64,000 nt of DNA from Phycisphaerae bacterium. GTDB lineage: Bacteria; Planctomycetota; Phycisphaerae; FEN-1346; JAACEH01. The stretch lies in contig JAWLHX010000014.1 of assembly GCA_041690105.1 (NCBI GenBank), positions 740 to 64,739 of the forward strand, read 5' to 3'. Shown piece after piece: positions 27,052 through 38,695 of this stretch (the stretch's first letter is position 1; every line of letters begins with the position of its first letter). A model generated the notes under the pieces. It had not been told where the DNA came from. It searched no databases and saw only the letters and a program-made list of their open reading frames with translations. A program made the position numbers and the translations under genes.

Positions 27052-28167
27052 TTAGAATTTGCGGACGAACATGATGCCCGCCCCGCCATCGCGCGGCACG
27101 TACGGCATCATCGTGAAGCCGCCCACCTCAACCATGCGGCCCCTGGCCACGCTGTGACCAACCACCGAGCCGATGGCGAAGCCCATGATGACGTCGCTCA
27201 TCCAGTGCTCGCGGTCGTTGATGCGCGACACCCCGCCCCAGCCCGCCAGCAGGTAGGCCGGCACGCCGTACCACGGGCCGTAATATTCGTATACCACGGC
27301 GGCCACGGTCACAGCATGACTGGTATGCCCGCTCGGCCAGGCCCACATTTCGCCATTCGGGCTGCGGTCGTGGGCCACCCATTTCATGCCCTGGGTAATC
27401 ATGCCGTTCAGCATCAGAGCCTGCAGCAAGGTCTTGCTGAAGCCGTACATCTCGTCGTTTTCGGTATAGACGCCCAGACCATAGCCGGCCAGACCCATAC
27501 CGAAGTGCAGGAAAGGATTGCTTATGAAGCCGCCAAAGTCGCCGTCGTGGCTCCAGGCGGTGCGATTTGTCCGAAAGTAGTCGTCGGCATCCTCATCCCA
27601 GTTATGCCGACTGACAGCCGACAGGCCACCCGCCGCCCCCAGAATGATTACCCCCGGAACCGTGGCCGTGTCCTTGGTGCTCTTCCACAATTCGCGCGGC
27701 AACAGCTTGACGTCGTCCCAGATAACCTCCCGCATCGTCCGGCCCGCCAGCGGCCTCTGCCACCACACGTCAAGATCGGTCGCGCCGGGCCGGACGCGTT
27801 CCATCTCTCCGCCGTCAGCCGACTCGGCCGACAGAGGCTGAATCGCGGCCGGCCCCTCGTCCTCATCGGCCATGCTGAAAAGTCGCGGCCCACGGGTCAG
27901 GCTGGCCGACCATGCCAGTGCCCGCCTGCGGTCAATCTCGCTGCGCACATGTTCAGGCGCCTGGTTGTCGATGCCCGCCAGCGACTCCTCGCCCGTTTGC
28001 CACTGCATGTCCGCCTGCCTCTCGGCCGCCCGGGCCAGCACCAGCGGACGCAAGGCCTCCACCTGCCCCCCAACTTCGACCTCGGCCGACGTCCGGCACC
28101 CGGCGCTGACAATCATGATGGTAGCCACAAAAACCGTCGTCAGGATAATCGTTGCACGCTTTGCCAC
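27052..28167 (-). CDS. PAP2-superfamily (phosphatidic acid phosphatase type 2) lipoprotein
   Basis: Lipobox IVSAGC. PAP2 motifs PSGHTSHA and SRINDREHWMSDV. Confidence 0.8.
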   Translation of the reverse strand: MAKRATIILTTVFVATIMIVSAGCRTSAEVEVGGQVEALRPLVLARAAERQADMQWQTGEESLAGIDNQAPEHVRSEIDRRRALAWSASLTRGPRLFSMADEDEGPAAIQPLSAESADGGEMERVRPGATDLDVWWQRPLAGRTMREVIWDDVKLLPRELWKSTKDTATVPGVIILGAAGGLSAVSRHNWDEDADDYFRTNRTAWSHDGDFGGFISNPFLHFGMGLAGYGLGVYTENDEMYGFSKTLLQALMLNGMITQGMKWVAHDRSPNGEMWAWPSGHTSHAVTVAAVVYEYYGPWYGVPAYLLAGWGGVSRINDREHWMSDVIMGFAIGSVVGHSVARGRMVEVGGFTMMPYVPRDGGAGIMFVRKF

Positions 28168-28188
28168 GCTGATCTCCGCATGATGTTG

Positions 28189-29706
28189 TTAAGGACCAGG
28201 TAATCTCGTTCTTGAGGTGCTCGTATCGTACCACACTTTCTCGGGTGACAGGAATTCGATCGTCCGCTCGACGTCAGCAAAACGATCGACCTGCTCGCCC
28301 TGCGTCTCAACATTCAGCCGCCGCTCCTGCGTTACCCGCAGTATGCGGCGAGTATCCTCGCCAGGGGCGTAATCTACCAGATTCATCAGCACTGTAACAG
28401 TTGTAACTTTTGCATGCGGAGCGGTCTTTCGTGTCACTAAGTCCACAGAATGCAGAGCCCAGTCGTCCAGCGGAAAAGCCAGCAATCCGGCCAGGCCATA
28501 AAACCATTTTTCGAAGCGTATTGCCGCCTGCCCGCCACGCTCGCTCACGCACTGCACGTGGATCACACTCTCCTCGGCCTCGGCCTGCCCGGCCGGCTCT
28601 TCCTGCCAGAAGGTCAGTCGGAATCGGCCCTTAGCCGTCAGCACCGGAGCCAGATCGTGCAGCTCGTCAATCCGCACCTCGTAACCCGGCCGCACATCGA
28701 CCACCAGGCTGCCGACCGTCTGCCCGTCGACTTCCGCCATCTCCATCACCACCAGGTAGAACTTATCCCACTGATCAAGCAGGCGGGCCATGTTTTGCAG
28801 CATTCGCGGCATCACGTCAAGGTAGACGGTCAACTCATCGCGCCTGATGGGGCGCTCGTCTCGCTCTGCCCGCTGCCGAAGCTCCAGCATCTTCTGCTCG
28901 ATCATGCCCTGCACAATCACGGCCGACATCGGTCCCTGCTCCATGATGGCCATGACCTCTTCGACCGCTCCGTCCGGTATGCGCAAATCGGCCGCCTGAA
29001 ACACACCGGCCATGGCGAACTTTACCACCAATCGCCGGCGTTCTTCGTTATAGAGCAACCGGCCGTCCTTGAACATCCGCCCCGGGGCGGACTGCGCCGC
29101 GACGTATTCCATTACGCTCCGGGCCAGCGGCGCCCCCTGCGACAGGTGCTGCTGAGTAGCGCGGGCATAGGGCCGCGGATCGGCCGCCTCAACTCCATGA
29201 TCGACCCGATAGATGATCGCGAACACTTTGGATGCATCTTCAGCCCACTTCTTCCGGCCCGACGGCTGCACGTATGTTTCCACCTGGGTCGACCAGCGGC
29301 CAATGGCCTCCGCCAACTGGCGCATATCGTCGGCCGCATCAGCCGCCATCTCCGGAGTAATCAGCAGACGCAATCCATCCGCCGGCCGCTCGGCAATCTG
29401 CTCGCGAGCGCTGGTCAGGTTGCTGATACTGGCCCACGTGCTCTCCTCGCGGATGATAATAACCCGTTGCGGCATCTCGGCACCCTCGCCTCGAGTGGCC
29501 AGATTCACCTGCCGCCACTTATCGGGCCGCACGTGAAAGGCTGCGTCAAACTCCCCCGGCCGCGTTGCACGGCTATCCATACAGCCAGTGGCAGCCGTCA
29601 AAATTATCAGCGCCGGCAGCAGCAGCGTCAGCGCCACCCGCGTCTCCGGGGCAGCCCCTGAGGCCCGCGGCACACTTCCGTCGGATTTCTCCCAGCCAGT
29701 GGTCAT
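28189..29706 (-). CDS. hypothetical large lipoprotein
   Basis: Lipobox ...LTAATGC after the internal start MTTGWEK (ATG 29704-29706). No recognisable domain. It is separated from the HAD-like gene stop by 1 nt. Confidence 0.55.
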   Translation of the reverse strand: MTTGWEKSDGSVPRASGAAPETRVALTLLLPALIILTAATGCMDSRATRPGEFDAAFHVRPDKWRQVNLATRGEGAEMPQRVIIIREESTWASISNLTSAREQIAERPADGLRLLITPEMAADAADDMRQLAEAIGRWSTQVETYVQPSGRKKWAEDASKVFAIIYRVDHGVEAADPRPYARATQQHLSQGAPLARSVMEYVAAQSAPGRMFKDGRLLYNEERRRLVVKFAMAGVFQAADLRIPDGAVEEVMAIMEQGPMSAVIVQGMIEQKMLELRQRAERDERPIRRDELTVYLDVMPRMLQNMARLLDQWDKFYLVVMEMAEVDGQTVGSLVVDVRPGYEVRIDELHDLAPVLTAKGRFRLTFWQEEPAGQAEAEESVIHVQCVSERGGQAAIRFEKWFYGLAGLLAFPLDDWALHSVDLVTRKTAPHAKVTTVTVLMNLVDYAPGEDTRRILRVTQERRLNVETQGEQVDRFADVERTIEFLSPEKVWYDTSTSRTRLPGP

Positions 29707-29707
29707 G

Positions 29708-30784
29708 TCAGCGGCCCTCCGTCGGACTACCGGGCAACTGCGGGTCCTGGCGGCGCAGACGCTCAACCTCTTGCGGGGCCGGAGGCTCTTCGCCCTGCTC
29801 CGGCTCTTGCTCTAGAATTTCGTCCATTCGCTGCCGCGCCAGCTTCTCCAGTTCGGAGGCCGCCTGAGAGGCCGGAAACTTGGCCTGCTCGTATATCACC
29901 TGCTCAACCTGTCGCCAATTTTCGACCACCGACACGTCATCGCCCAGACTGCGCACATCGCGCAGCCAGCGCAGCACATCGCCGGGCTCGGTCATGCTGT
30001 CCGGATGCAGAATCAGAATGGCATGCATGCCGCCGGCCTGGTACGCACGAATGTCTGTCATCAAATCGCCGACGCCATAGCGAAGGTTCGGGAAGTCGCG
30101 CTTGATGGCCTTGATCTGGGAGGTCTTGTATTGCTGCACACCAAGCCCAAGGGTCGAATCGCTGTTGGCAATCACCGGGCCCAGAGGGTAGTTGTTCTTG
30201 CGAAGCCAATGCTTGCTGAGTTGAGAAAACGAGGTGGGCCGGCCCGTCAGATAAACAACTACACAATCTTGCACCAGACGCTCGGTTACCTTCAAGCTGT
30301 AAGGTATGGGCTCGGCCTGGCCGCCCAGAACGCCCTCAAAGCCCCCGCTCACCAGAGTCCAGTCCAGGTCGAGCACCACCAACTCTACATCCGGCGGCTG
30401 AACCTCGACCAGTATCTCCGTCGCCTCCACGGCAAACTTGCGCACGTCGGGGTCTTCGAGCCGGGCCGTCAGCACCTGCTGGCCGGGCCGGAATGGGGTA
30501 ATCTCCACCCAGGCCCGCCCGTCTTCATCGGTGCGCATCTCGCCGATTTTATGATCAAGATCATAGAAGCCGACCAAGTAGCCCTCCATGCCCGACAGGT
30601 AATTGCCGCCGCGAAGTTCGGCCGTTACGCGCACCGGCCGCCCAGGGTGGGCCAGCGTGTCGAAGCCTTGGAACAGCAGACCACCACGCGTGCCGAGAAG
30701 CTGATCCTGCACCCCGCAACCTGTGGCTCCTAAGACTGCACAAAGCAGCACCAGAGTGAATAAGGCAACAGTTGACCGTGGCAT
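29708..30784 (-). CDS. HAD-superfamily (App1/LNS2-like phosphatase fold) lipoprotein
   Basis: Lipobox LGATGC. DxDxT motif VVLDLDWTLV and HAD motif IV GDLMTDIRAY. Acidic C-terminal tail. Confidence 0.6.
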   Translation of the reverse strand: MPRSTVALFTLVLLCAVLGATGCGVQDQLLGTRGGLLFQGFDTLAHPGRPVRVTAELRGGNYLSGMEGYLVGFYDLDHKIGEMRTDEDGRAWVEITPFRPGQQVLTARLEDPDVRKFAVEATEILVEVQPPDVELVVLDLDWTLVSGGFEGVLGGQAEPIPYSLKVTERLVQDCVVVYLTGRPTSFSQLSKHWLRKNNYPLGPVIANSDSTLGLGVQQYKTSQIKAIKRDFPNLRYGVGDLMTDIRAYQAGGMHAILILHPDSMTEPGDVLRWLRDVRSLGDDVSVVENWRQVEQVIYEQAKFPASQAASELEKLARQRMDEILEQEPEQGEEPPAPQEVERLRRQDPQLPGSPTEGR

Positions 30785-30832
30785 TGAAGAAAACCCTCCC
30801 GATGTATTGGCACCGCTGCATTCAAGGTTCGT

Positions 30833-31714
30833 TTAATTGCTCCCGTACTGCGACACCATGTTCTGCCGATTCAGCACCTGCTGCTGATAGCGCTCCCGGC
30901 CTACAGTCAGATTCGGATTGTTGACCGCCTGCGGGTATTCCCGGCGAATGGTCTCCTGCAGGTATTCAAGCCGGTTATCCGGATTTGGGTGCGTGCGCAG
31001 GAACTCCGGGCCACCACCCTCCCCCTCCATCCGCTGGAAGAGCCGCATTACGTCAACCAGTCCTTCGGGCTGATACCCAGCGTTCACCAGGAATTGCAGG
31101 CCGTACATGTCGGCTTCGCGTTCATGATCTCGACTGTAGCTGAGCTGCCGGAAATTATTGGCGATGGTGGCCACCTGACCTGCCCGGGTGGCAGTGGTTT
31201 CACCACGGGTACGGGCCAGTGCGGCGACCGCGGCCTCGATGAGAACCGCCGCGCCCACCTGGTTGGACATCTGCGTGGCGCTGTGCTGACCGATAACGTG
31301 GGCTGCTTCATGAGCCAGCACGCCGGCCAATTGAGACTCGTTCTGCAGATTGAAGAGAAGGCCCCGGGTCACGTAAATCGGTCCGCCGGGCAGCGCAAAG
31401 GCGTTGATGGCCTCGTTGTCGACAACGCCAAACTTGTATTCGTAAGGCAGGCTGGGATCCAGGGCCCGGGCCTGATCGGCCACACGATTGCCGACCTGGC
31501 TGACGTAGGCCTGGATGACCGGATCGTTGTATAAGCCGCCAAGCTCCTCTACTACCTGCGGTTCGGCTTCCAGCCCCAGGGCCACCTCCTGCTCGGGCGG
31601 CAGAATGTTGAACTGTCGTTCACCGGTCAGCGGACTTGTACTGCATCCGGCAGCAAAAGGCAGGGCCATCAGCATGCAAAGGCCGGCCAGCAACAGCTTT
31701 CTCTTGGGCATCAT
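30833..31714 (-). CDS. M48-family zinc metallopeptidase lipoprotein (BepA/YfgC-like)
   Basis: Lipobox PFAAGC. HExxH LAHEAAHVIGQH and a downstream glutamate (EREADMYG). Confidence 0.8.
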   Translation of the reverse strand: MMPKRKLLLAGLCMLMALPFAAGCSTSPLTGERQFNILPPEQEVALGLEAEPQVVEELGGLYNDPVIQAYVSQVGNRVADQARALDPSLPYEYKFGVVDNEAINAFALPGGPIYVTRGLLFNLQNESQLAGVLAHEAAHVIGQHSATQMSNQVGAAVLIEAAVAALARTRGETTATRAGQVATIANNFRQLSYSRDHEREADMYGLQFLVNAGYQPEGLVDVMRLFQRMEGEGGGPEFLRTHPNPDNRLEYLQETIRREYPQAVNNPNLTVGRERYQQQVLNRQNMVSQYGSN

Positions 31715-31736
31715 GATATACTCCCCCTGAAGGATA

Positions 31737-32186
31737 TTAGGAACTCATTTGATTGGAAACCTGAACATACGCCATGCGCAACTGGTAGAGCACGGTGTCA
31801 ATGTAGCGTTTCTCTTCAGCAGCCAGATTGCCGCGCGTCTTTTCTTCCAGCACGCTCAACAGATCGACAGTGTGTTTGGCCAGGTCGAGATTCTGCATCG
31901 ATTCGCCGGTCTGGGGGTCGCGCTGCGGGCTGAGGAACATCATGGCCTGCGTGGCCAGGCTCTGAATCAGGACCTCGATGGTCGCCGGGGGCAACTCGTG
32001 CATGCCGCGGCCTGCAGTTTGGTCGGTCGCAGCGGCACCCTCCCCGAGGCCTTCACCGGCGCCGCCGGCCGGAGCAGTTCGCTTGGCCTCGCTCTCGCGG
32101 GCCAGACGCTCTTTTTCGGCCCGCATCTGCTCCTTCCAGTCGGTATCAATGTGCAGCTTCTTATCGCCTTCACCCTCTGCGGCCAT
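31737..32186 (-). CDS. DUF1844-domain protein
   Basis: The C-terminal half PPATIEVLIQSLATQAMMFL...DLAKHTVDLLSVLEEKTRGNLAAEEKRYIDTVLYQLRMAYV matches DUF1844. Confidence 0.6.
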   Translation of the reverse strand: MAAEGEGDKKLHIDTDWKEQMRAEKERLARESEAKRTAPAGGAGEGLGEGAAATDQTAGRGMHELPPATIEVLIQSLATQAMMFLSPQRDPQTGESMQNLDLAKHTVDLLSVLEEKTRGNLAAEEKRYIDTVLYQLRMAYVQVSNQMSS

Positions 32187-32505
32187 TGGTCTTCCTTTCC
32201 TCGTGCTGGTTGCGGTAAGTCAATGATGTATAGGATCAGCCTTATCTCTGAACCTGCCAATGCTGATTTTAACTCATCGGCAGCAGCAAGCCAATAGGCA
32301 GAGTGGCAATAGAAATGGGGAAAAGGAGGAAACGCCCACCCGCCTCCGGGGGTGGAGACACTGTGGCGGAACGGGCGAATCGGCAGCAACCCGGCCCGAT
32401 CAAGTCCGGCAAGGCTTTCATCCTGGACGTTAATGGCCACCTGACGGACGGACGGCCCTGACGGTCACGGTAGCACGATAAGAGGTCGCCCTGGGCGGCC
32501 CGGCA

Positions 32506-34014
32506 TCAGCCGCGATAGCGCGTCGGCCTGGCTCTCAGGGTGGCTTGCAGCTCAACAACCTCTTCGCCGCGACGAACCTTCACTGTGATACTGTCGCCGA
32601 CACTGCGCGAGCCTATCTCGTGCAGCAACTGGTAGCTGCTCTCGACCGGCTTGCCTTCGAGCTCAATGATAATGTCGCCGCTCTTCATTCCCGCGGCCGC
32701 GGCCGCAGTGTTCCGGATTACTTCCTGAACCTGCGCTCCGCTCTGCAGGCGGGTCATGTTGAACTGTACGCCGAGAAATGGCGGCTCGATCGTCTTGCCG
32801 TCCTTCAGCGTGGCGAAATGGGCCATAATGTCTTCCAGCGGAACCGCGAAACCGATGCCGCTGTCGCTGTAACGGCTTGCACTGGCTGTACTTCCGGCAA
32901 CGTCAACGGAGGCTATCATGGCTACACCCCGACCGCGGATATCGGCCAGCAAACCGCCGAAGTTGACCGGCGAAATGTTGGCGTCGGTCTGCAGAGTGAG
33001 GCCGGCGTGCCGCCGCAACGAACTGATAATGCCCTTGGTGACAGTCGTGCCACCAATGGGCAGAGCCCGTCCAAGAGCCAGCACCCACTGACCAAGCTGA
33101 AGATCGTCGCGAGGCACAACCACCACCGCCGGCAGGCCCTCGGCCTCAACCTTCAGCAGCAGAACGTCGCGTCGCACATCCTCGCCAAGAGCCTTGGCGT
33201 CGAGAATGCGCCCGTCAGCAAGCTCGACCTGAAGCCCGTCGCGTTGCCGCCCGCAGCCGGCCAGGCTGGTAATAATGTAACCGTCGCTGGCCACCACTAC
33301 CCCCGAGCGCGGGTGCTGCTTGATGGGCACAATTGGCTGACCATCGTCATCCTCCGCCAGTTCCTCCGCCTGCTCCTCCGCCTTGGGGGTGTCGGCCGCA
33401 GGTGCATCGGCGGGGTTGTCAGCATTATCTTCGGCGGGCGGAGCAGCCTTGTCCTCTGCGGCATCGTCGCCATCTGCCTCGTCGGCACTGTCATCCTTGG
33501 CAGCCGGATCGGCCGGCGAGGGGGCATCATCCTGCGGCTTGGCCGCCTCAATTTCCCTTAGCAACTGCTGAAGCGCCTGCAACTGGCGGGCAAACTCATC
33601 GCCCTCAAGTTCGGTCAGCTTCTCGCTCATCTCCTGCAGCCGCTTCTGCAGAGCCTGAAGCCGTGGGTTGTCGCGGGCAGCATCCTGCAACTGCCGCTCG
33701 GCGTCATCGCGCAGGGCCTCGGCCTGCATCTGGTCCACTCTCTGCCGGCGGTTACGCTGGGCAATCAGCTTCTGCTGCTCCTTGCTGTATTCCGGAACAA
33801 GCACGCGCACCACCGAGGGCGAGACCGTTTCCACGCTCAGACTCATAACCCGGTCCAGGTCCGAAAACTCCGAGCTGTGCACGGGCATCGGGTCCTGCGC
33901 CAAGGCATGGCCCGAGCCGCTGGCGAAAACCGCCACGGCAGCCGTCACCAGGCTCAGAACCAGCACCATCATGGGCATCAGGCGACGTTTATCAGTCTGT
34001 TCTTGCAGTTGCAT
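32506..34014 (-). CDS. HtrA/DegP-family paralogue with PDZ domain and long N-terminal coiled-coil/acidic extension; catalytic His and Ser replaced (predicted pseudoprotease)
   Basis: The protease-domain alignment is retained, but TNNHV is TSLAGC and GNSGGPL is VNFGGLL. The Asp motif DVLLLKV is kept. A C-terminal PDZ is present (GVQFNM..., GDIIIELEGKPV). Confidence 0.7.
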   Translation of the reverse strand: MQLQEQTDKRRLMPMMVLVLSLVTAAVAVFASGSGHALAQDPMPVHSSEFSDLDRVMSLSVETVSPSVVRVLVPEYSKEQQKLIAQRNRRQRVDQMQAEALRDDAERQLQDAARDNPRLQALQKRLQEMSEKLTELEGDEFARQLQALQQLLREIEAAKPQDDAPSPADPAAKDDSADEADGDDAAEDKAAPPAEDNADNPADAPAADTPKAEEQAEELAEDDDGQPIVPIKQHPRSGVVVASDGYIITSLAGCGRQRDGLQVELADGRILDAKALGEDVRRDVLLLKVEAEGLPAVVVVPRDDLQLGQWVLALGRALPIGGTTVTKGIISSLRRHAGLTLQTDANISPVNFGGLLADIRGRGVAMIASVDVAGSTASASRYSDSGIGFAVPLEDIMAHFATLKDGKTIEPPFLGVQFNMTRLQSGAQVQEVIRNTAAAAAGMKSGDIIIELEGKPVESSYQLLHEIGSRSVGDSITVKVRRGEEVVELQATLRARPTRYRG

Positions 34015-34019
34015 GGATA

Positions 34020-35348
34020 CTACTCCCTCGCGCCCAGAGTTACCTTCAGCTTCAACTCTACTGGTTCATTCTCGCCCGCAGCCCCCCGGCCCGGGCGCAA
34101 CACGGTCAACGTGACTTCGTCGCCAGGCTTGTGCTGGCCAAGGGCAGCGGCCAACTCCGCAAAAGTGGCCACCGCTTTACCGTCGACCGCCTTAATCAGG
34201 TCGCCAGCGGCGATGCCGCCATCTGCGGCCGGACCGCCGGGCACGGTTGCAGCTACGCGACAGTCTTTGCTGTCCGGAGCCGCAATAACGCCCAGATAAG
34301 CCGCCTGCTTCTCCTCATCCTCCGCCTCCTTGGCCATCGGTGGATCGGGTGATTCCACCGCCCGCTTAAGCAGCGGCTCGATGACCTCCACCGGAAGAGC
34401 CACGTTCAGGGCGCTGTTGGTCGGGCGGTAGTAGATCGGCAGCATCAATATACCCACCAGCCGCCCCTGGGCGTCGAGCATGGCCCCGCCCTGGCTGCCG
34501 GTATTGGCCGTGGCGTCGGTCAGCAGCAGGTCGCCATCGTACTTCAGGCCACTCTTCATTTTGCCGCGGCCGGCGAGCAATCCGGCGCTGAAGGCCGGCT
34601 GGGTGAATTTCTTCATGTCGGACCCAACCGGATAGGCGACTGTGGCCACCCACGAACCGATGGCCGCAGGTTCGTTGCCACCAGCGGCAATAAATGGCCA
34701 GACAATGTCGGCCGGCGGTGTGGCCGACTCCTCGGTGCCCTCAGAAGCCTGGGACGGATCGTCGTCAGGCAGGGCGAATTCCTGCTCCATGGCTTCTTCC
34801 GAGATGGCACTAAGTTCGTCAGCAACTGGTTTTTCCGGCTCGCCCGCCTTGTCTTCAGGCTCTTTGGCCTCCTGAGCCGGACGCTCGCCTTCGTCCTTCT
34901 TGTCTGGAGCGGTCGCGGCTTCAGGAGCCAGAAGCCTGAGCACGGCCAGTTGCGTCGGAGCATCGCGCAGCAACACCTTGGCCTTTAATATCCGCCCGTC
35001 GCTGGTCAGCACGTTGAGCTTGTCGCGCTTGGCAATGTCGATGTGCGTGATAAGCAGGCCATCGGCGGTAACAACTGTGCCGCTGGAATAAGACCGATTG
35101 TTGTAGTAGACCCTGACAACAGCCGGGCTGACTCGTTCATAAATGCCGGTAAGAGCGCTGGTTCGGTCTGCGTTGCGGTCGGATTCATCGACCCGGATTG
35201 CTGCGGTCGAACCGGCCCGAGCCTCAACCGCTGCAGGTGCGGCCTGCCCCAGGGTGCCGAACGAGCCGAAAACAATGACTGCGGCAACCAGAAGCACAAA
35301 CCATCGACCGCAGCGGTCAACACGCTCTTTATCAAGCATCGGCTTCAC
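34020..35348 (-). CDS. HtrA/DegP-family paralogue, divergent (catalytic Ser replaced by Gln; ~80-aa acidic insertion)
   Basis: TDATANTGSQGGAMLD versus the TDAAINPGNSGGPL consensus. The Asp position reads QLAVLRL. The His region LITHIDIA is shifted. C-terminal PDZ present (GDLIKAVDGKAV). Confidence 0.65.
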   Translation of the reverse strand: MKPMLDKERVDRCGRWFVLLVAAVIVFGSFGTLGQAAPAAVEARAGSTAAIRVDESDRNADRTSALTGIYERVSPAVVRVYYNNRSYSSGTVVTADGLLITHIDIAKRDKLNVLTSDGRILKAKVLLRDAPTQLAVLRLLAPEAATAPDKKDEGERPAQEAKEPEDKAGEPEKPVADELSAISEEAMEQEFALPDDDPSQASEGTEESATPPADIVWPFIAAGGNEPAAIGSWVATVAYPVGSDMKKFTQPAFSAGLLAGRGKMKSGLKYDGDLLLTDATANTGSQGGAMLDAQGRLVGILMLPIYYRPTNSALNVALPVEVIEPLLKRAVESPDPPMAKEAEDEEKQAAYLGVIAAPDSKDCRVAATVPGGPAADGGIAAGDLIKAVDGKAVATFAELAAALGQHKPGDEVTLTVLRPGRGAAGENEPVELKLKVTLGARE

Positions 35349-35496
35349 CTCGTCTCGTGCGGCTCAGGGGCCGCCTGCTGTATTCTCGGCAACACAATTC
35401 ATCACCATAATGCGGCCATTCATCGCCGCTGCAACAATAATAATGATCACACAACGTTGCTGCGATAATCATTACAACTGTCAGGCTGCAACCGGT

Positions 35497-36834
35497 TCAG
35501 TCCTCGGTCCCATTCTCTGAACCATTCGGGGCAGCTTCCGGCGACTCGGGGCCATTTTCACCCTCGCCATTATCGTCGCCGTCGCCGTTTTCGGGCCCGC
35601 CGTCTTTATTCTCGCCATCGTCTTCGTTTTTTTCCTGATCTTCGCCGCCTTGGCCTTCATCCTCGCCGTCCTCGTCACCTTCGCCTTCGTCCTCTTCTTC
35701 GGGACCGGGCACCGGTGGGGCCAGGCGGGTGCCACGGGCGCGGGCAAGTTCGGCCATCTTCAGCAGTGCCACCGCCTGCACGCCACCAAGTTGCACCTGT
35801 CGCTGCTGCTGCGTACCGTCGCGCAGGGTTGTCACCTGCACGCGCATGCCTGCCGGTCGCGTCTGGACGAAGTTGTTGACGTCGCCAATATCCCTGAAGG
35901 CCTGCCCGTCGATGCTGACCAGAATGTCGCCCTTGCGAATACCGAAGACATCGGCCGGCGATTCCGCAACCAGCGATTCGATCTTCAGCCCGGCCGCATC
36001 TTCGCTCACTTGCTGCACGCCGAGAAAGCCGCGATCGACCTCGTGGCCTGCCTTGAGGTCTTCCAGAAAGCGCTTGATGGCGTCAATCGGAATGGCGAAA
36101 CCTATGCCCGCGTTCAGTTTCTGGACACGCATGCCCTCCAGCCGTCGCGGCGCTATGCGGCCATTTATGCCAATCAATTCGCCTTGCATGTTAAACAGCG
36201 GACCACCGGAGTTGCCGGGATTGAGGGCGGCATCAATCTGGATAGCATCAGCATAGATAAGGTCTTTCCGCAAGGCACCGCCACCCGGCAGATAGCGGTG
36301 CAGACCGCTTACAACGCCCATGCTGACCGTGGGACTGAAGTCGGTGGCCAGCAGAAACGGATTGCCCATGGCGATAACCCACTGACCAACCTCAAGCTCG
36401 TCGCTCGACCCCAGGGGCACGTAGGGCAACTCTTCGTCGGTCTCGATCTTCAGCAAAGCTATGTCGCCCGTGCGATCCAGACCCAGCAGCTTTGCGGCGT
36501 ATGTCTTGCCACCAACACGACCTATGCGCAAGTTGCGGGTGGTTTCGGTAACGTGGAAATTGCTCAAAGCATAGCCGTCAGGAGAAATAATCACCCCGCT
36601 GCCGGAGCCGGGAGCCAAGTTGTCCAGATCGCTGTCAACTCGGAATACGCTGATTACCGTCGGCACAAGGCGCTGTATAAGCTCAACCCGGGCCTGCTCG
36701 CGGGCGGCAACGCGCTGCAGCAGATCGGCATCCGAAGCCGTCGCCACTGCAGATGCTGCCGAGAGGAGCGCCCCGGCCATAATCAGCATAAAAGCTGATC
36801 TGCCACCTTTTTTCCATCTGCCAGATAATGCCAT
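35497..36834 (-). CDS. htrA: HtrA/DegP serine endoprotease with PDZ domain and poly-acidic C-terminal tail (catalytic triad intact)
   Basis: GSGVIISPDGYALSNFHV (His), DIALLKI (Asp), GNSGGPLFN (Ser), and PDZ GDILVSIDGQAF. The last ~70 aa are E/D/G/N-rich. Confidence 0.85.
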   Translation of the reverse strand: MALSGRWKKGGRSAFMLIMAGALLSAASAVATASDADLLQRVAAREQARVELIQRLVPTVISVFRVDSDLDNLAPGSGSGVIISPDGYALSNFHVTETTRNLRIGRVGGKTYAAKLLGLDRTGDIALLKIETDEELPYVPLGSSDELEVGQWVIAMGNPFLLATDFSPTVSMGVVSGLHRYLPGGGALRKDLIYADAIQIDAALNPGNSGGPLFNMQGELIGINGRIAPRRLEGMRVQKLNAGIGFAIPIDAIKRFLEDLKAGHEVDRGFLGVQQVSEDAAGLKIESLVAESPADVFGIRKGDILVSIDGQAFRDIGDVNNFVQTRPAGMRVQVTTLRDGTQQQRQVQLGGVQAVALLKMAELARARGTRLAPPVPGPEEEDEGEGDEDGEDEGQGGEDQEKNEDDGENKDGGPENGDGDDNGEGENGPESPEAAPNGSENGTED

Positions 36835-37284
36835 AGCCGTGGTTCCTTGTTTCAGAAAGAGACTGCTGTATGAACAACTCAGCTGCAGGCGCAGTCCTGC
36901 AAAAAATCATCAAAGCACCATTGCGATTGTAGCAAAAGTCAGCACGAAGGCCAGCAATGCCGGCAGCCCATCAGCGACAATCCGAAGGCAGCTGCGGTCA
37001 GCCTCGGAAATCTGGTCAAGCAATTGCTCGATGCCTGCAGGATTCGGACCCTTCGGCATCTGCGTTCCAAACCACCTGCAGAAAGTGGCAGCATTCCTGC
37101 CTGACGCGCCTGAAACGCCGTCGCGGGCCACCTTCCATAACATTACTACGTTTTTGACCCTGTCTGACGCAACAAAGTTTCGCTAAAATATCTCTGGACC
37201 GCCTGCGTTTGTTATAATAGGGTGGTATGGCAGCAGAGGAACCGATGCTGCGCAAATGACTATTTTTTAACTGGAGGCACGTTC

Positions 37285-38202
37285 ATGAGAAAACTGACTA
37301 TAACGGTCATCGTGCTCTTAGCCGCAGTTGGCCTGACCGCCGGCCAGTCATGGGCTATTGATTGGGACCAGCAGCCGGCCGCACGCGAGGGCGACCGACC
37401 CGCCGCCGAGAGCGCCCCCGGACAGCAGCAGAACCAGAATGGTGATCAGGCCGGGGAGTCGCAAGAGGCGAGACAGCCCGCCGAGCAGAGCGAAGAAGAT
37501 CAGCGCATAAATCGCTCGATTGGCCTGGACTGGGGCGACAAAGATAAGAGCGACAAACCGGAAGACCCGAACATGCGTCAGCCGGGCCAGAAGGTGGACC
37601 TGTCCACCGCCCTGGACGAAAGGCAGCAGAAACTGCTTGAGAATATCCAGAAAATAGCGGCCGATGGCGATGAGCTTGCCGCCCTGGCCGCAAAGACCAA
37701 AGCCGGCGAGAACGAGCGTATACCCAAGGAACGCAGCCTGCAGCAGTTCAATGCCGCCAGCGTAAAGTACCTGAAAGCGCATGGCGATCTGGAACGGCGT
37801 CTCGGAAGGGCTATTCAGGATGACGATACGCGGCTGACGCTTTACCGCGAATATGGCGACACCTATCGCCGCAAAGCGGCGCAGATGCTGCTCAATGCCG
37901 GGCACGCCGCCATGGAGTTTCAGAACAACCCCAATGGCATAAAGACGGCAGTCACCTACTTCAAGCGGGCTCGGGCAATTGACGAAAGTCACACTGGCTG
38001 GCGCGACGGCTACCTGGCTGCCCAGTCGGCCATGCGCGACCTGGTGCAGACTGCCCAGCAGACAGCTGCGGCCCGTAATGCAACAACTGGTGGCGGCGGT
38101 GCCACTGACACCGAAGATGATGAGACGATTTACGGAGATAACGACTACCAGCGACAGAGGCGGGAGGCATCGCCGGGCTTTGACAGACCGAACCGGCCCT
38201 GA
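37285..38202 (+). CDS. secreted hypothetical protein (Gln/Glu-rich N-terminal region)
   Basis: GGAGG Shine-Dalgarno at 37273-37277 and signal peptide MRKLTITVIVLLAAVGLTAGQSWA. No recognisable domain. Confidence 0.55.
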   Translation: MRKLTITVIVLLAAVGLTAGQSWAIDWDQQPAAREGDRPAAESAPGQQQNQNGDQAGESQEARQPAEQSEEDQRINRSIGLDWGDKDKSDKPEDPNMRQPGQKVDLSTALDERQQKLLENIQKIAADGDELAALAAKTKAGENERIPKERSLQQFNAASVKYLKAHGDLERRLGRAIQDDDTRLTLYREYGDTYRRKAAQMLLNAGHAAMEFQNNPNGIKTAVTYFKRARAIDESHTGWRDGYLAAQSAMRDLVQTAQQTAAARNATTGGGGATDTEDDETIYGDNDYQRQRREASPGFDRPNRP

Positions 38203-38285
38203 AAGTGTGGGCTGCTAGCGGCGGGCATTGCGGCGGCGGGTTAGCGCAGGCTGCGAGTGTTTCAGCTGATTGAAACGGTCCGCAC

Positions 38286-38338
38286 AAAAAAAATAATCGG
38301 GCGATCCGGAAAATCTTCCAGATCGCCCGTTTTTTTTC
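38286..38338. terminator. bidirectional Rho-independent terminator (A-tract, hairpin, T-tract) between the convergent secreted-protein gene and tatA
   Basis: AAAAAAAAA then cgggcgatccggaaaatcttccagatcgcccg (a 13-bp stem with one mismatch) then TTTTTTTT. Confidence 0.75.
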
Positions 38339-38467
38339 AGTCATCACACCAAGTGTCACTTTACTGGATGGGACGGTGACTACTTCTGCAGCGTCCCGCT
38401 CAGGGCAACCTGGCCGGAGTTGCAGCAGGATGAGGCACAAGCCACAACCAGCCGCGGAAACAAAGGG

Positions 38468-38695
38468 CTATGGTTTTTTCGTCTCCGCCTTATCATCGCT
38501 GATATCGGTGGAGACATCGTCCTGAACGTCTTTCAGGCCCTTTTTGAACTCGATGATACCTCGGCCAAGGCTGCGGCCAACCTCCGGCAATCGCCGCCCG
38601 AACAGCAGCAGGGCGACAATGGCGATTACGATAATTTCGAGCGGTCCCGGCGTCCACATGGCAAGCATGGCATGAGGCATGCGAATTTCCTCCAA
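38468..38695 (-). CDS. tatA: twin-arginine translocase subunit TatA/E
   Basis: A single TM helix followed by an amphipathic helix (LEIIVIAIVALLLFGRRLPEVGRSLGRGIIEFKKGL). The true start is probably the internal M (MLAMW...). Confidence 0.75.
   Translation of the reverse strand: MEEIRMPHAMLAMWTPGPLEIIVIAIVALLLFGRRLPEVGRSLGRGIIEFKKGLKDVQDDVSTDISDDKAETKKP

Follow-up and report, generated by a model that had tools for sequence, protein, structure and literature searches.

This report concerns a 64,000-nucleotide stretch of DNA from a Phycisphaerae bacterium (Planctomycetota; contig JAWLHX010000014.1, assembly GCA_041690105.1), referred to throughout as the window, and within it three adjacent genes, named A, B and C in order of transcription, which encode relatives of the HtrA/Do serine proteases. 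A carries an intact catalytic triad, B and C are predicted to be pseudoproteases, and the same three genes recur in the same order across Planctomycetota. The reading that we favour, though with a confidence only a little above even, is that the products form one periplasmic HtrA machine for quality control or processing, with A as the cutting subunit and B and C as its non-catalytic partners. The composition of the set, one intact protease plus two pseudoproteases, had been proposed in an original prediction made from the nucleotide sequence, and is solidly upheld by the alignments and by triad statistics across many loci, as is the retention of function in B and C.

Three consecutive open reading frames (ORFs) occupy the minus strand where genes for trypsin-fold/PDZ proteins had been predicted (Table 1). 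The three products match Pfam Trypsin_2 together with PDZ families (PDZ_2, PDZ_6, PDZ), all above the gathering scores. E-values for Trypsin_2 are 2.6e-31 for A, 2.9e-13 for B and 6.7e-17 for C; PDZ_2 is matched in A and with E = 8.6e-13 and 1.4e-15 in B and C, respectively. Against the NCBIfam model degP_htrA_DO (TIGR02037) the bit scores are 250.9 (A), 98.7 (B) and 162.4 (C), and none reaches the cut-off of 416.2. Likewise, none of the three attains the cut-off of an NCBIfam equivalog model for DegP, DegQ, DegS, MamE or MamO, and the DegP, DegQ and DegS scores fall far short. Each protein is predicted to be exported on account of a positively charged N-terminus, a hydrophobic helix and a cleavage motif of small residues, and the N-terminal helices are visible in AlphaFold2 (AF2) models of B and C.

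To identify the residues at the triad columns we aligned the proteins with HMMER to solved chains of DegP, DegQ and MucD and confirmed each residue at its codon. In A the triad is H94, D124 and S209 (GNSGG), the textbook His/Asp/Ser combination that had been expected, and alignment with the DegP-like chain 22kg and with MucD (8k2y) matches TNNHV, the aspartate and GNSGG. The signal peptide of A is followed by the trypsin fold, a single PDZ domain and, at the C-terminus, a low-complexity acidic tail of some 93 residues (nt 35500-35778). The alignments, which the original prediction had proposed as a check, place no complete His/Asp/Ser set in B or C.

In B the triad columns hold D104 for histidine, Q133 for aspartate and Q286 for serine (GSQGG), in a 442-residue numbering. 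Glutamine at the last two positions had been noted before; that the canonical histidine is also missing had been overlooked. The segment reads LITHIDIA as opposed to TNNHV and a histidine, H102, lies two residues N-terminal of the column, its placement being judged from the alignment and the secondary structure. After its signal peptide B comprises the trypsin fold and one PDZ domain, with a disordered acidic insertion of approximately 74 residues (140-213; nt 34710-34931). The AF2 model has a predicted local distance difference test (pLDDT) score of 79, and its best Foldseek matches are DegP, DegQ and DegS (E 1e-21). The ORF opens at GTG 35348, which had been taken as the start, but ATG 35339 is the most likely initiation codon because a GAGG sequence lies about 10 nt upstream and the resulting 439-residue product equals the public annotation.

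As the original prediction had it, C has lost both histidine and serine. Alignment to DegP, confirmed by the codons, places A252 (ITSLAGC) and F352 (VNFGG) at these columns, with D283 retained. The protein has a signal peptide, the trypsin fold and one PDZ domain, and the AF2 model (pLDDT 85.5) again finds DegP, DegQ and DegS as its best Foldseek matches (E 1e-24). An N-terminal extension of about 200 residues had been described, but alignment and model reveal an insertion of approximately 155 residues (nt 33322-33789), preceded by a conserved N-terminal helix and the first β-strand (residues 47-75). The insertion consists of three confidently predicted helices (78-158) and then a disordered acidic stretch, ahead of the second strand at residue 232. 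Its position is that of the LA loop of DegP, and among the orthologues compared the helical part is common only to P0002 and P0003. Acidic low-complexity tracts with 26-34% Asp + Glu are present in all three window proteins, at the nucleotide positions given above for each; in most orthologues they are absent or far shorter.

A trypsin fold and a C-terminal PDZ domain, the marks of the HtrA/Do group (MEROPS S1C), are found in all three proteins, whereas the His-Asp-Ser triad is found in A alone. Because their triad columns read D104/Q133/Q286 and A252/D283/F352, B and C are HtrA-fold homologues and not, as enzymes, members of S1C. Both have lost nucleophile and general base, and both retain the glycines that frame the active-site loop L1, along with the carboxylate-binding xLGV motif of the PDZ domain. 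The GIGF-type L2 segment is strict in C and diverged in B.

Are these substitutions peculiar to one genome? Seven B orthologues (P0122-P0128) all carry glutamine or glutamate at the serine column; a profile search with the B-type sequence returned mainly ordinary HtrA proteases and about 10 B-type proteins. The database search with C identified 15 orthologues in metagenome bins of Phycisphaerae and Planctomycetes, with 37-60% identity, and all 15 have tyrosine or phenylalanine at the serine column and no histidine; even the nearest orthologues share just 48-60% of their residues with the window proteins. The motif N[YF]GG is present in each of the best 120 database matches to C and GNSGG in none. 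Beyond the 15 orthologues, several hundred further matches to C are planctomycete proteins of about 650 residues that carry the label ‘PDZ domain-containing protein’ or else ‘serine protease Do’.

The Planctomycetia C-type proteins, of some 650-700 residues (e.g. L014:6858-8819), combine their dead protease domain with two PDZ domains and, at the C-terminus, an α/β-hydrolase-like domain, called ‘predicted esterase’ by some sources, that C of the window does not have. In the seven sequences inspected (P0017, P0027, P0028, P0033, P0083, P0024 and P0035) the nucleophile motif GxSxG is intact just once, so this additional domain may also be catalytically dead.

Conservation of the triplet was assessed in a scan of species-representative genomes, made in part with generic patterns, which gave at least 80 loci and is a sample rather than a census. 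ORFs were called at each locus and classified with phmmer against A, B and C, and the triad columns were extracted. The last dozen or so loci (Bacteroidota, Ignavibacteriae, Kryptonium) hold ordinary single HtrA genes and served as outgroup only. All counts that follow are among the loci listed. A locus was taken as evaluable if at least 3.3 kb lay upstream of the C-type gene, which applied to 52. The clean order A-B-C is seen in 44 of these and all three genes are present in 49, the picture in the additional five being obscured by artefacts of ORF calling, by fragmentation of A or by a fusion. The remaining three (L009, L021 and L067) are stand-alone C-type paralogues with neither A nor B upstream. 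Conservation of the triplet in relatives, which the original prediction had left to be checked, therefore extends in the same order across the phylum.

The window's pattern of one intact and two dead sites is repeated at these loci. At position 1 the H-D-S triad is complete in 54 of 54 complete sequences. At position 2 the serine column is occupied by Ala, Gly, Pro, Glu, Gln or Tyr in 52 of 57 and by Ser in five, and the canonical histidine is found in none of the 57. At position 3 every sequence has Tyr or Phe at the serine column. In the relatives the first gene is of the active type and also matches Pfam Trypsin (PF00089), with the B-type and C-type genes coming after. The window conforms to the pattern: the genes are co-oriented, the first with an intact triad, the second of the approximately 340-440-residue class with the serine replaced, and the third carrying N[YF]GG. 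Hosts of the triplet include Gemmataceae, Pirellulales, Planctomycetaceae, Thermoguttaceae, Lacipirellulaceae and others, together with the Phycisphaerae-like lineage of the window, so that the arrangement looks like a signature of Planctomycetota. One locus, L005 (CAZCOA010000003.1), is labelled ‘uncultured Anaerolineaceae bacterium’ and holds the full cluster, A-B-C and the divergent upstream gene U, with a C product 50% identical to that of the window; the contig is probably planctomycete and was either mis-binned or mislabelled.

A crude neighbour-joining tree of the protease-PDZ cores gives a pure A clade (55 of 55) and a nearly pure B clade (54 B and one C); B is nested inside the clade of the common ancestor of C, and a distinct C clade is not cleanly resolved. 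Mean identity within groups is 58% (A), 45% (B) and 47% (C), as against approximately 26% between groups. Since each group unites the copy from the window with copies from Planctomycetia, the duplications appear older than the split of these planctomycete classes. Across this range of sequences the dead sites of B and C are best described as family traits and not lesions.

The genes are also closely packed. In the relatives A/B and B/C are joined by 4-nt overlaps of stop and start codons or separated by gaps of 3-7 nt. B and C of the window lie 5 nt apart, with a GGGAG ribosome-binding site within the end of B. Judged from the sequence, A, B and C are translationally coupled. At one locus (L034:2750-5671) a single ORF of 973 residues encodes, in this order, an A-type protease-PDZ unit whose triad is intact, some 300 residues of linker and a B-type dead protease-PDZ unit, followed with a 4-nt overlap by C. 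A signal peptide before the B part was sought in every frame and none was found. If real, this A-B fusion hints, in Rosetta-stone fashion, that the two proteins function in a common complex.

How might one live and two dead paralogues work together? A hetero-oligomer, which the original prediction had raised, is plausible. From the fold, the dead sites, the gene order, the coupling and the one apparent fusion we infer physical association, a stoichiometry and an allosteric role. A would be the sole peptide-bond hydrolase of the machine, whilst the PDZ domains and clefts of B and C would capture substrate or activator peptides and the two proteins would relay allosteric activation to A. In HtrA trimers such as those of DegS and DegP, one protomer uses its loop L3 to act on the LD, L1 and L2 loops of the adjacent protomer, so that a dead protomer could still activate a live one. 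In the simplest stoichiometry the assembly would mix A, B and C, possibly as a 1:1:1 trimer. The appeal of such a trimer is that HtrA proteins are built up from trimers and that the conserved lineages number exactly three. The data fit equally well with stacked homotrimers of the kind seen in Deg5/Deg8. In the most specific version Planctomycetota would have exchanged the usual symmetric HtrA homotrimer for an asymmetric heterotrimer A·B·C that is obligate, or for cages assembled from it, with one active site per trimer that two differently specialised dead subunits gate through substrate capture and allosteric control. This version is tentative and we think it rather unlikely to be correct in that form. 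ClpP/ClpR, with mixed rings of active and inactive subunits, would then offer a parallel, and the assembly would be the first heterotrimeric HtrA protease.

In favour of a single machine we count the family-wide dead sites, the fixed A-B-C order, the separate lineages, the coupling, the fusion at L034, the loop and PDZ motifs kept by the dead copies, the confident HtrA-like AF2 models of B and C and the precedent of MamE/MamO discussed below. Several points weigh on the other side. The A-B gap in the window, at 157 nt, is wider than in the relatives; a search of positions 31500-38500 against Rfam gave no match, this gap included. The fusion is a single case in one metagenome-assembled genome and may be natural or an assembly artefact. 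Conservation of gene order can be explained by co-regulation alone, and the association of A, B and C is itself a prediction. Characterised HtrAs are homo-oligomers. The one Deg hetero-oligomer on record consists of homotrimers of two enzymes that are both active (PMC4877387). Finally, three consecutive genes of Planctopirus limnophila, Plim_1809-1811, are non-essential in rich medium by transposon insertion sequencing (PMC10632474), which makes the system dispensable if they are the triplet. Plim_1809 is annotated as ‘peptidase S1 and S6’ and the other two as ‘PDZ/DHR/GLGF domain protein’ (PMC10632474, supplement); from annotation and adjacency, the orthology not being sequence-verified, they probably are the same triplet.

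The alternative that deserves most attention has B and C as independent homo-oligomeric chaperones or holdases that would bind unfolded envelope proteins but not cleave them, and would merely be co-regulated with A under envelope stress. Both keep the fold, the cleft framework and the PDZ domains that such a role would use, HtrA proteins are normally homo-oligomeric, and DegP has a protease-independent chaperone activity, its protease-dead S210A variant being able to bind unfolded proteins that it does not cut. A division between chaperone and protease has been discussed for HhoB and HtrA (PMC4877387), and the stand-alone C-type paralogues at L009, L021 and L067 also fit an independent function. 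Left unexplained on these terms are the single copy of each lineage, in fixed order and with overlapping stop and start codons throughout the phylum, and the apparent A-B fusion. In addition a bulky Tyr or Phe would partly occupy the cleft, with no obvious gain to a holdase. We consider this explanation possible but doubtful.

It is very improbable that B, C or both are divergent enzymes employing non-canonical residues. The suggestion has some appeal for B of the window's own lineage, where an upstream histidine (the TH motif) is present in seven of eight sequences and Glu or Gln at the serine column in all eight. However the L003/L004 orthologue has Tyr in place of the motif histidine, and the Planctomycetia B-type (LTVWSYV), whose serine column usually holds Ala, Gly or Pro, has lost it. 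No residue that might serve in catalysis is kept throughout the B clade, and the C family has Tyr or Phe and no histidine, so this explanation was set aside. That B and C are recent pseudogenes, decaying and functionless duplicates of A, had been allowed for in the original prediction and can now be dismissed almost entirely. Triad residues are indeed gone and in this genome the proteins carry low-complexity acidic insertions. Against this, the ORFs are intact with signal peptides; dead B- and C-types occur as intact ORFs across Planctomycetota at the same operon position; dozens of species share the substitutions, in orthologues that are 37-60% identical and invariant at many positions; and the models of B and C are confidently HtrA-like. 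B and C are, moreover, just 25-27% identical to A and so are not recent copies. The comparative data already refute decay, and the association of A, B and C in one machine remains the reading that we prefer.

Literature searches that combined HtrA or DegP with Planctomycetes yielded no description of the triplet. The original prediction had gone further, taking an active-plus-dead HtrA arrangement to be undescribed as far as was known. That broader claim does not hold, as the MamE/MamO pairing is published and degenerate Deg domains and Deg5/Deg8 hetero-oligomers are known. MamO, a dead HtrA-derived protein, is required for MamE-dependent proteolysis, and dead HtrA copies arose three times in magnetotactic lineages (PMC4794232). 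The resemblance to the triplet is clear: an active HtrA and a dead HtrA-fold paralogue are encoded in one gene cluster, and the dead copies were born by duplication and retained under selection. Unlike B and C, to which it is not related, MamO is fused to a TauE transporter domain, binds metal through a di-histidine motif and has a role in magnetosome biomineralisation. Neither TauE nor any other additional Pfam domain was found in A, B or C, and with the NCBIfam MamO model A scores 65.5 bits and B 19.6, against a cut-off of 800, C having no listed match. The triplet differs in turn from MamE/MamO in having two dead lineages, both with PDZ domains, and in being phylum-wide in non-magnetotactic Planctomycetota.

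Deg5-Deg8 of the Arabidopsis thylakoid lumen were the sole Deg proteases with known hetero-oligomers at the time of PMC4877387. They parallel the proposed complex in bringing different HtrA paralogues into one extracytoplasmic assembly. Both Deg5 and Deg8 retain the triad, associate as homotrimers in a 1:1 ratio, and Deg5 has no PDZ domain, whereas two of the three triplet proteins are dead and all have PDZ domains. In DEG7 a degenerated second protease domain serves oligomerisation and not catalysis (PMC3194040), and inactive Deg proteins are scattered through plants and cyanobacteria (PMC3473262, PMC4877387). With its degenerated protease domain beside an active one, plant DEG7 (PMC3194040, PMC3473262) resembles the A-B fusion of L034, but it is a single eukaryotic chain with four PDZ domains while the triplet consists of separate bacterial genes, L034 excepted, and includes a third paralogue. 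The Escherichia coli enzymes DegP, DegQ and DegS, the best structural matches, share with A, B and C the fold, the protease-then-PDZ order, periplasmic targeting and the L1 and L2 motifs. They differ in being homo-oligomers with three active sites per trimer, encoded by genes that do not occur in active-plus-dead sets. A survey of microbial PDZ domains found planctomycetes to be rich in PDZ proteins (PMC6411480). What appears to be new is a phylum-wide HtrA operon of three lineages in fixed order with two distinct dead members.

HtrA is a textbook case of proteolysis controlled by allostery and oligomerisation, and what is known of it comes nearly all from homo-oligomers. A complex with one live and two dead subunits, if that is what the triplet encodes, would be a natural test of the number of active sites required in an HtrA trimer and of how activation travels between protomers. 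It would also provide a clear bacterial example, beyond magnetosomes, of pseudoenzymes kept as partners of an active paralogue, and that in the enlarged periplasm of organisms whose unusual envelope is poorly understood. Experiments are feasible since the likely copy, Plim_1809-1811, is in a genetically tractable species and non-essential in the laboratory. There is also a practical consequence for annotation. B- and C-type proteins are entered as ‘serine protease Do’ or ‘PDZ domain-containing protein’, and the former is wrong with respect to activity.

Table 1. Features of the HtrA triplet and its surroundings in the window.
Feature	Position (nt)	Strand	Size	Assignment or content	Basis
Gene A	35497..36834	-	445 aa	Active HtrA/Do-type serine protease	Pfam, HMMER alignments, codons
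Gene B	34020..35339	-	439 aa	Predicted HtrA-fold pseudoprotease	Pfam, DegP alignments, AF2, Foldseek
Gene C	32506..34014	-	502 aa	Predicted HtrA-fold pseudoprotease	Pfam, DegP alignment, AF2, Foldseek
Gene U	37285..38202	+	305 aa from ATG 37285	Divergent, secreted protein	BLASTP, phmmer
Spacer 3′ of C	32187..32505	-	319 nt	Terminator-like hairpin 32347-32328, promoter-like site 32294-32266	
Downstream block	27052-32186	-		DUF1844, M48, HAD/LNS2-like, unknown (525 aa), PAP2; spacing 22, 48, -59 and 21 nt	

The spacer that follows C is the probable 3′ boundary of the triplet transcription unit, which agrees with synteny being lost downstream of it in the relatives. The terminator-like and promoter-like sites after C are themselves weak evidence, as a consensus scan for promoters and terminators gave site counts no higher than in shuffled sequence. 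Beyond the spacer DUF1844 comes first, then four lipoproteins (M48, HAD/LNS2-like, unknown and PAP2, in that order) and finally GH130. The last four products of the DUF1844-to-PAP2 block carry lipoboxes (AAGC, ATGC, ATGC and SAGC) and DUF1844 has no signal peptide. The earlier annotation of these neighbours stands in part: DUF1844, M48 and PAP2 match Pfam, but of three proteins termed phosphatase-type just two have a phosphatase-like match. It had also been suggested that the triplet and these genes form one large envelope operon. This is not supported, because of the 319-nt gap, the lack of downstream synteny (no DUF1844, M48 or lipoprotein genes lie 3′ of the triplet in the relatives examined, namely L001, L003 and a 43.5-kb contig) and the absence of a signal peptide from DUF1844. 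The DUF1844-to-PAP2 block looks like a separate lipoprotein-rich operon.

After the triplet of the window there is no counterpart of a gene for an S24 (LexA-like) peptidase of about 330 residues that is found shortly 3′ of the triplet in three relatives (L001:5541-6548, L003:9187-10197 and the 43.5-kb contig), sometimes with restriction-modification genes. On the other side, gene U matches no Pfam family and was not detected beside Planctomycetia triplets at the loci classified with phmmer; whether it is part of the triplet system is uncertain. Its product is secreted and probably helical. It is conserved in the closest relatives only, where BLASTP aligns it with the gene at the same position in L001 (38% identity, 6e-40) and L003 (31%, 2e-35) and phmmer finds a match in L005.

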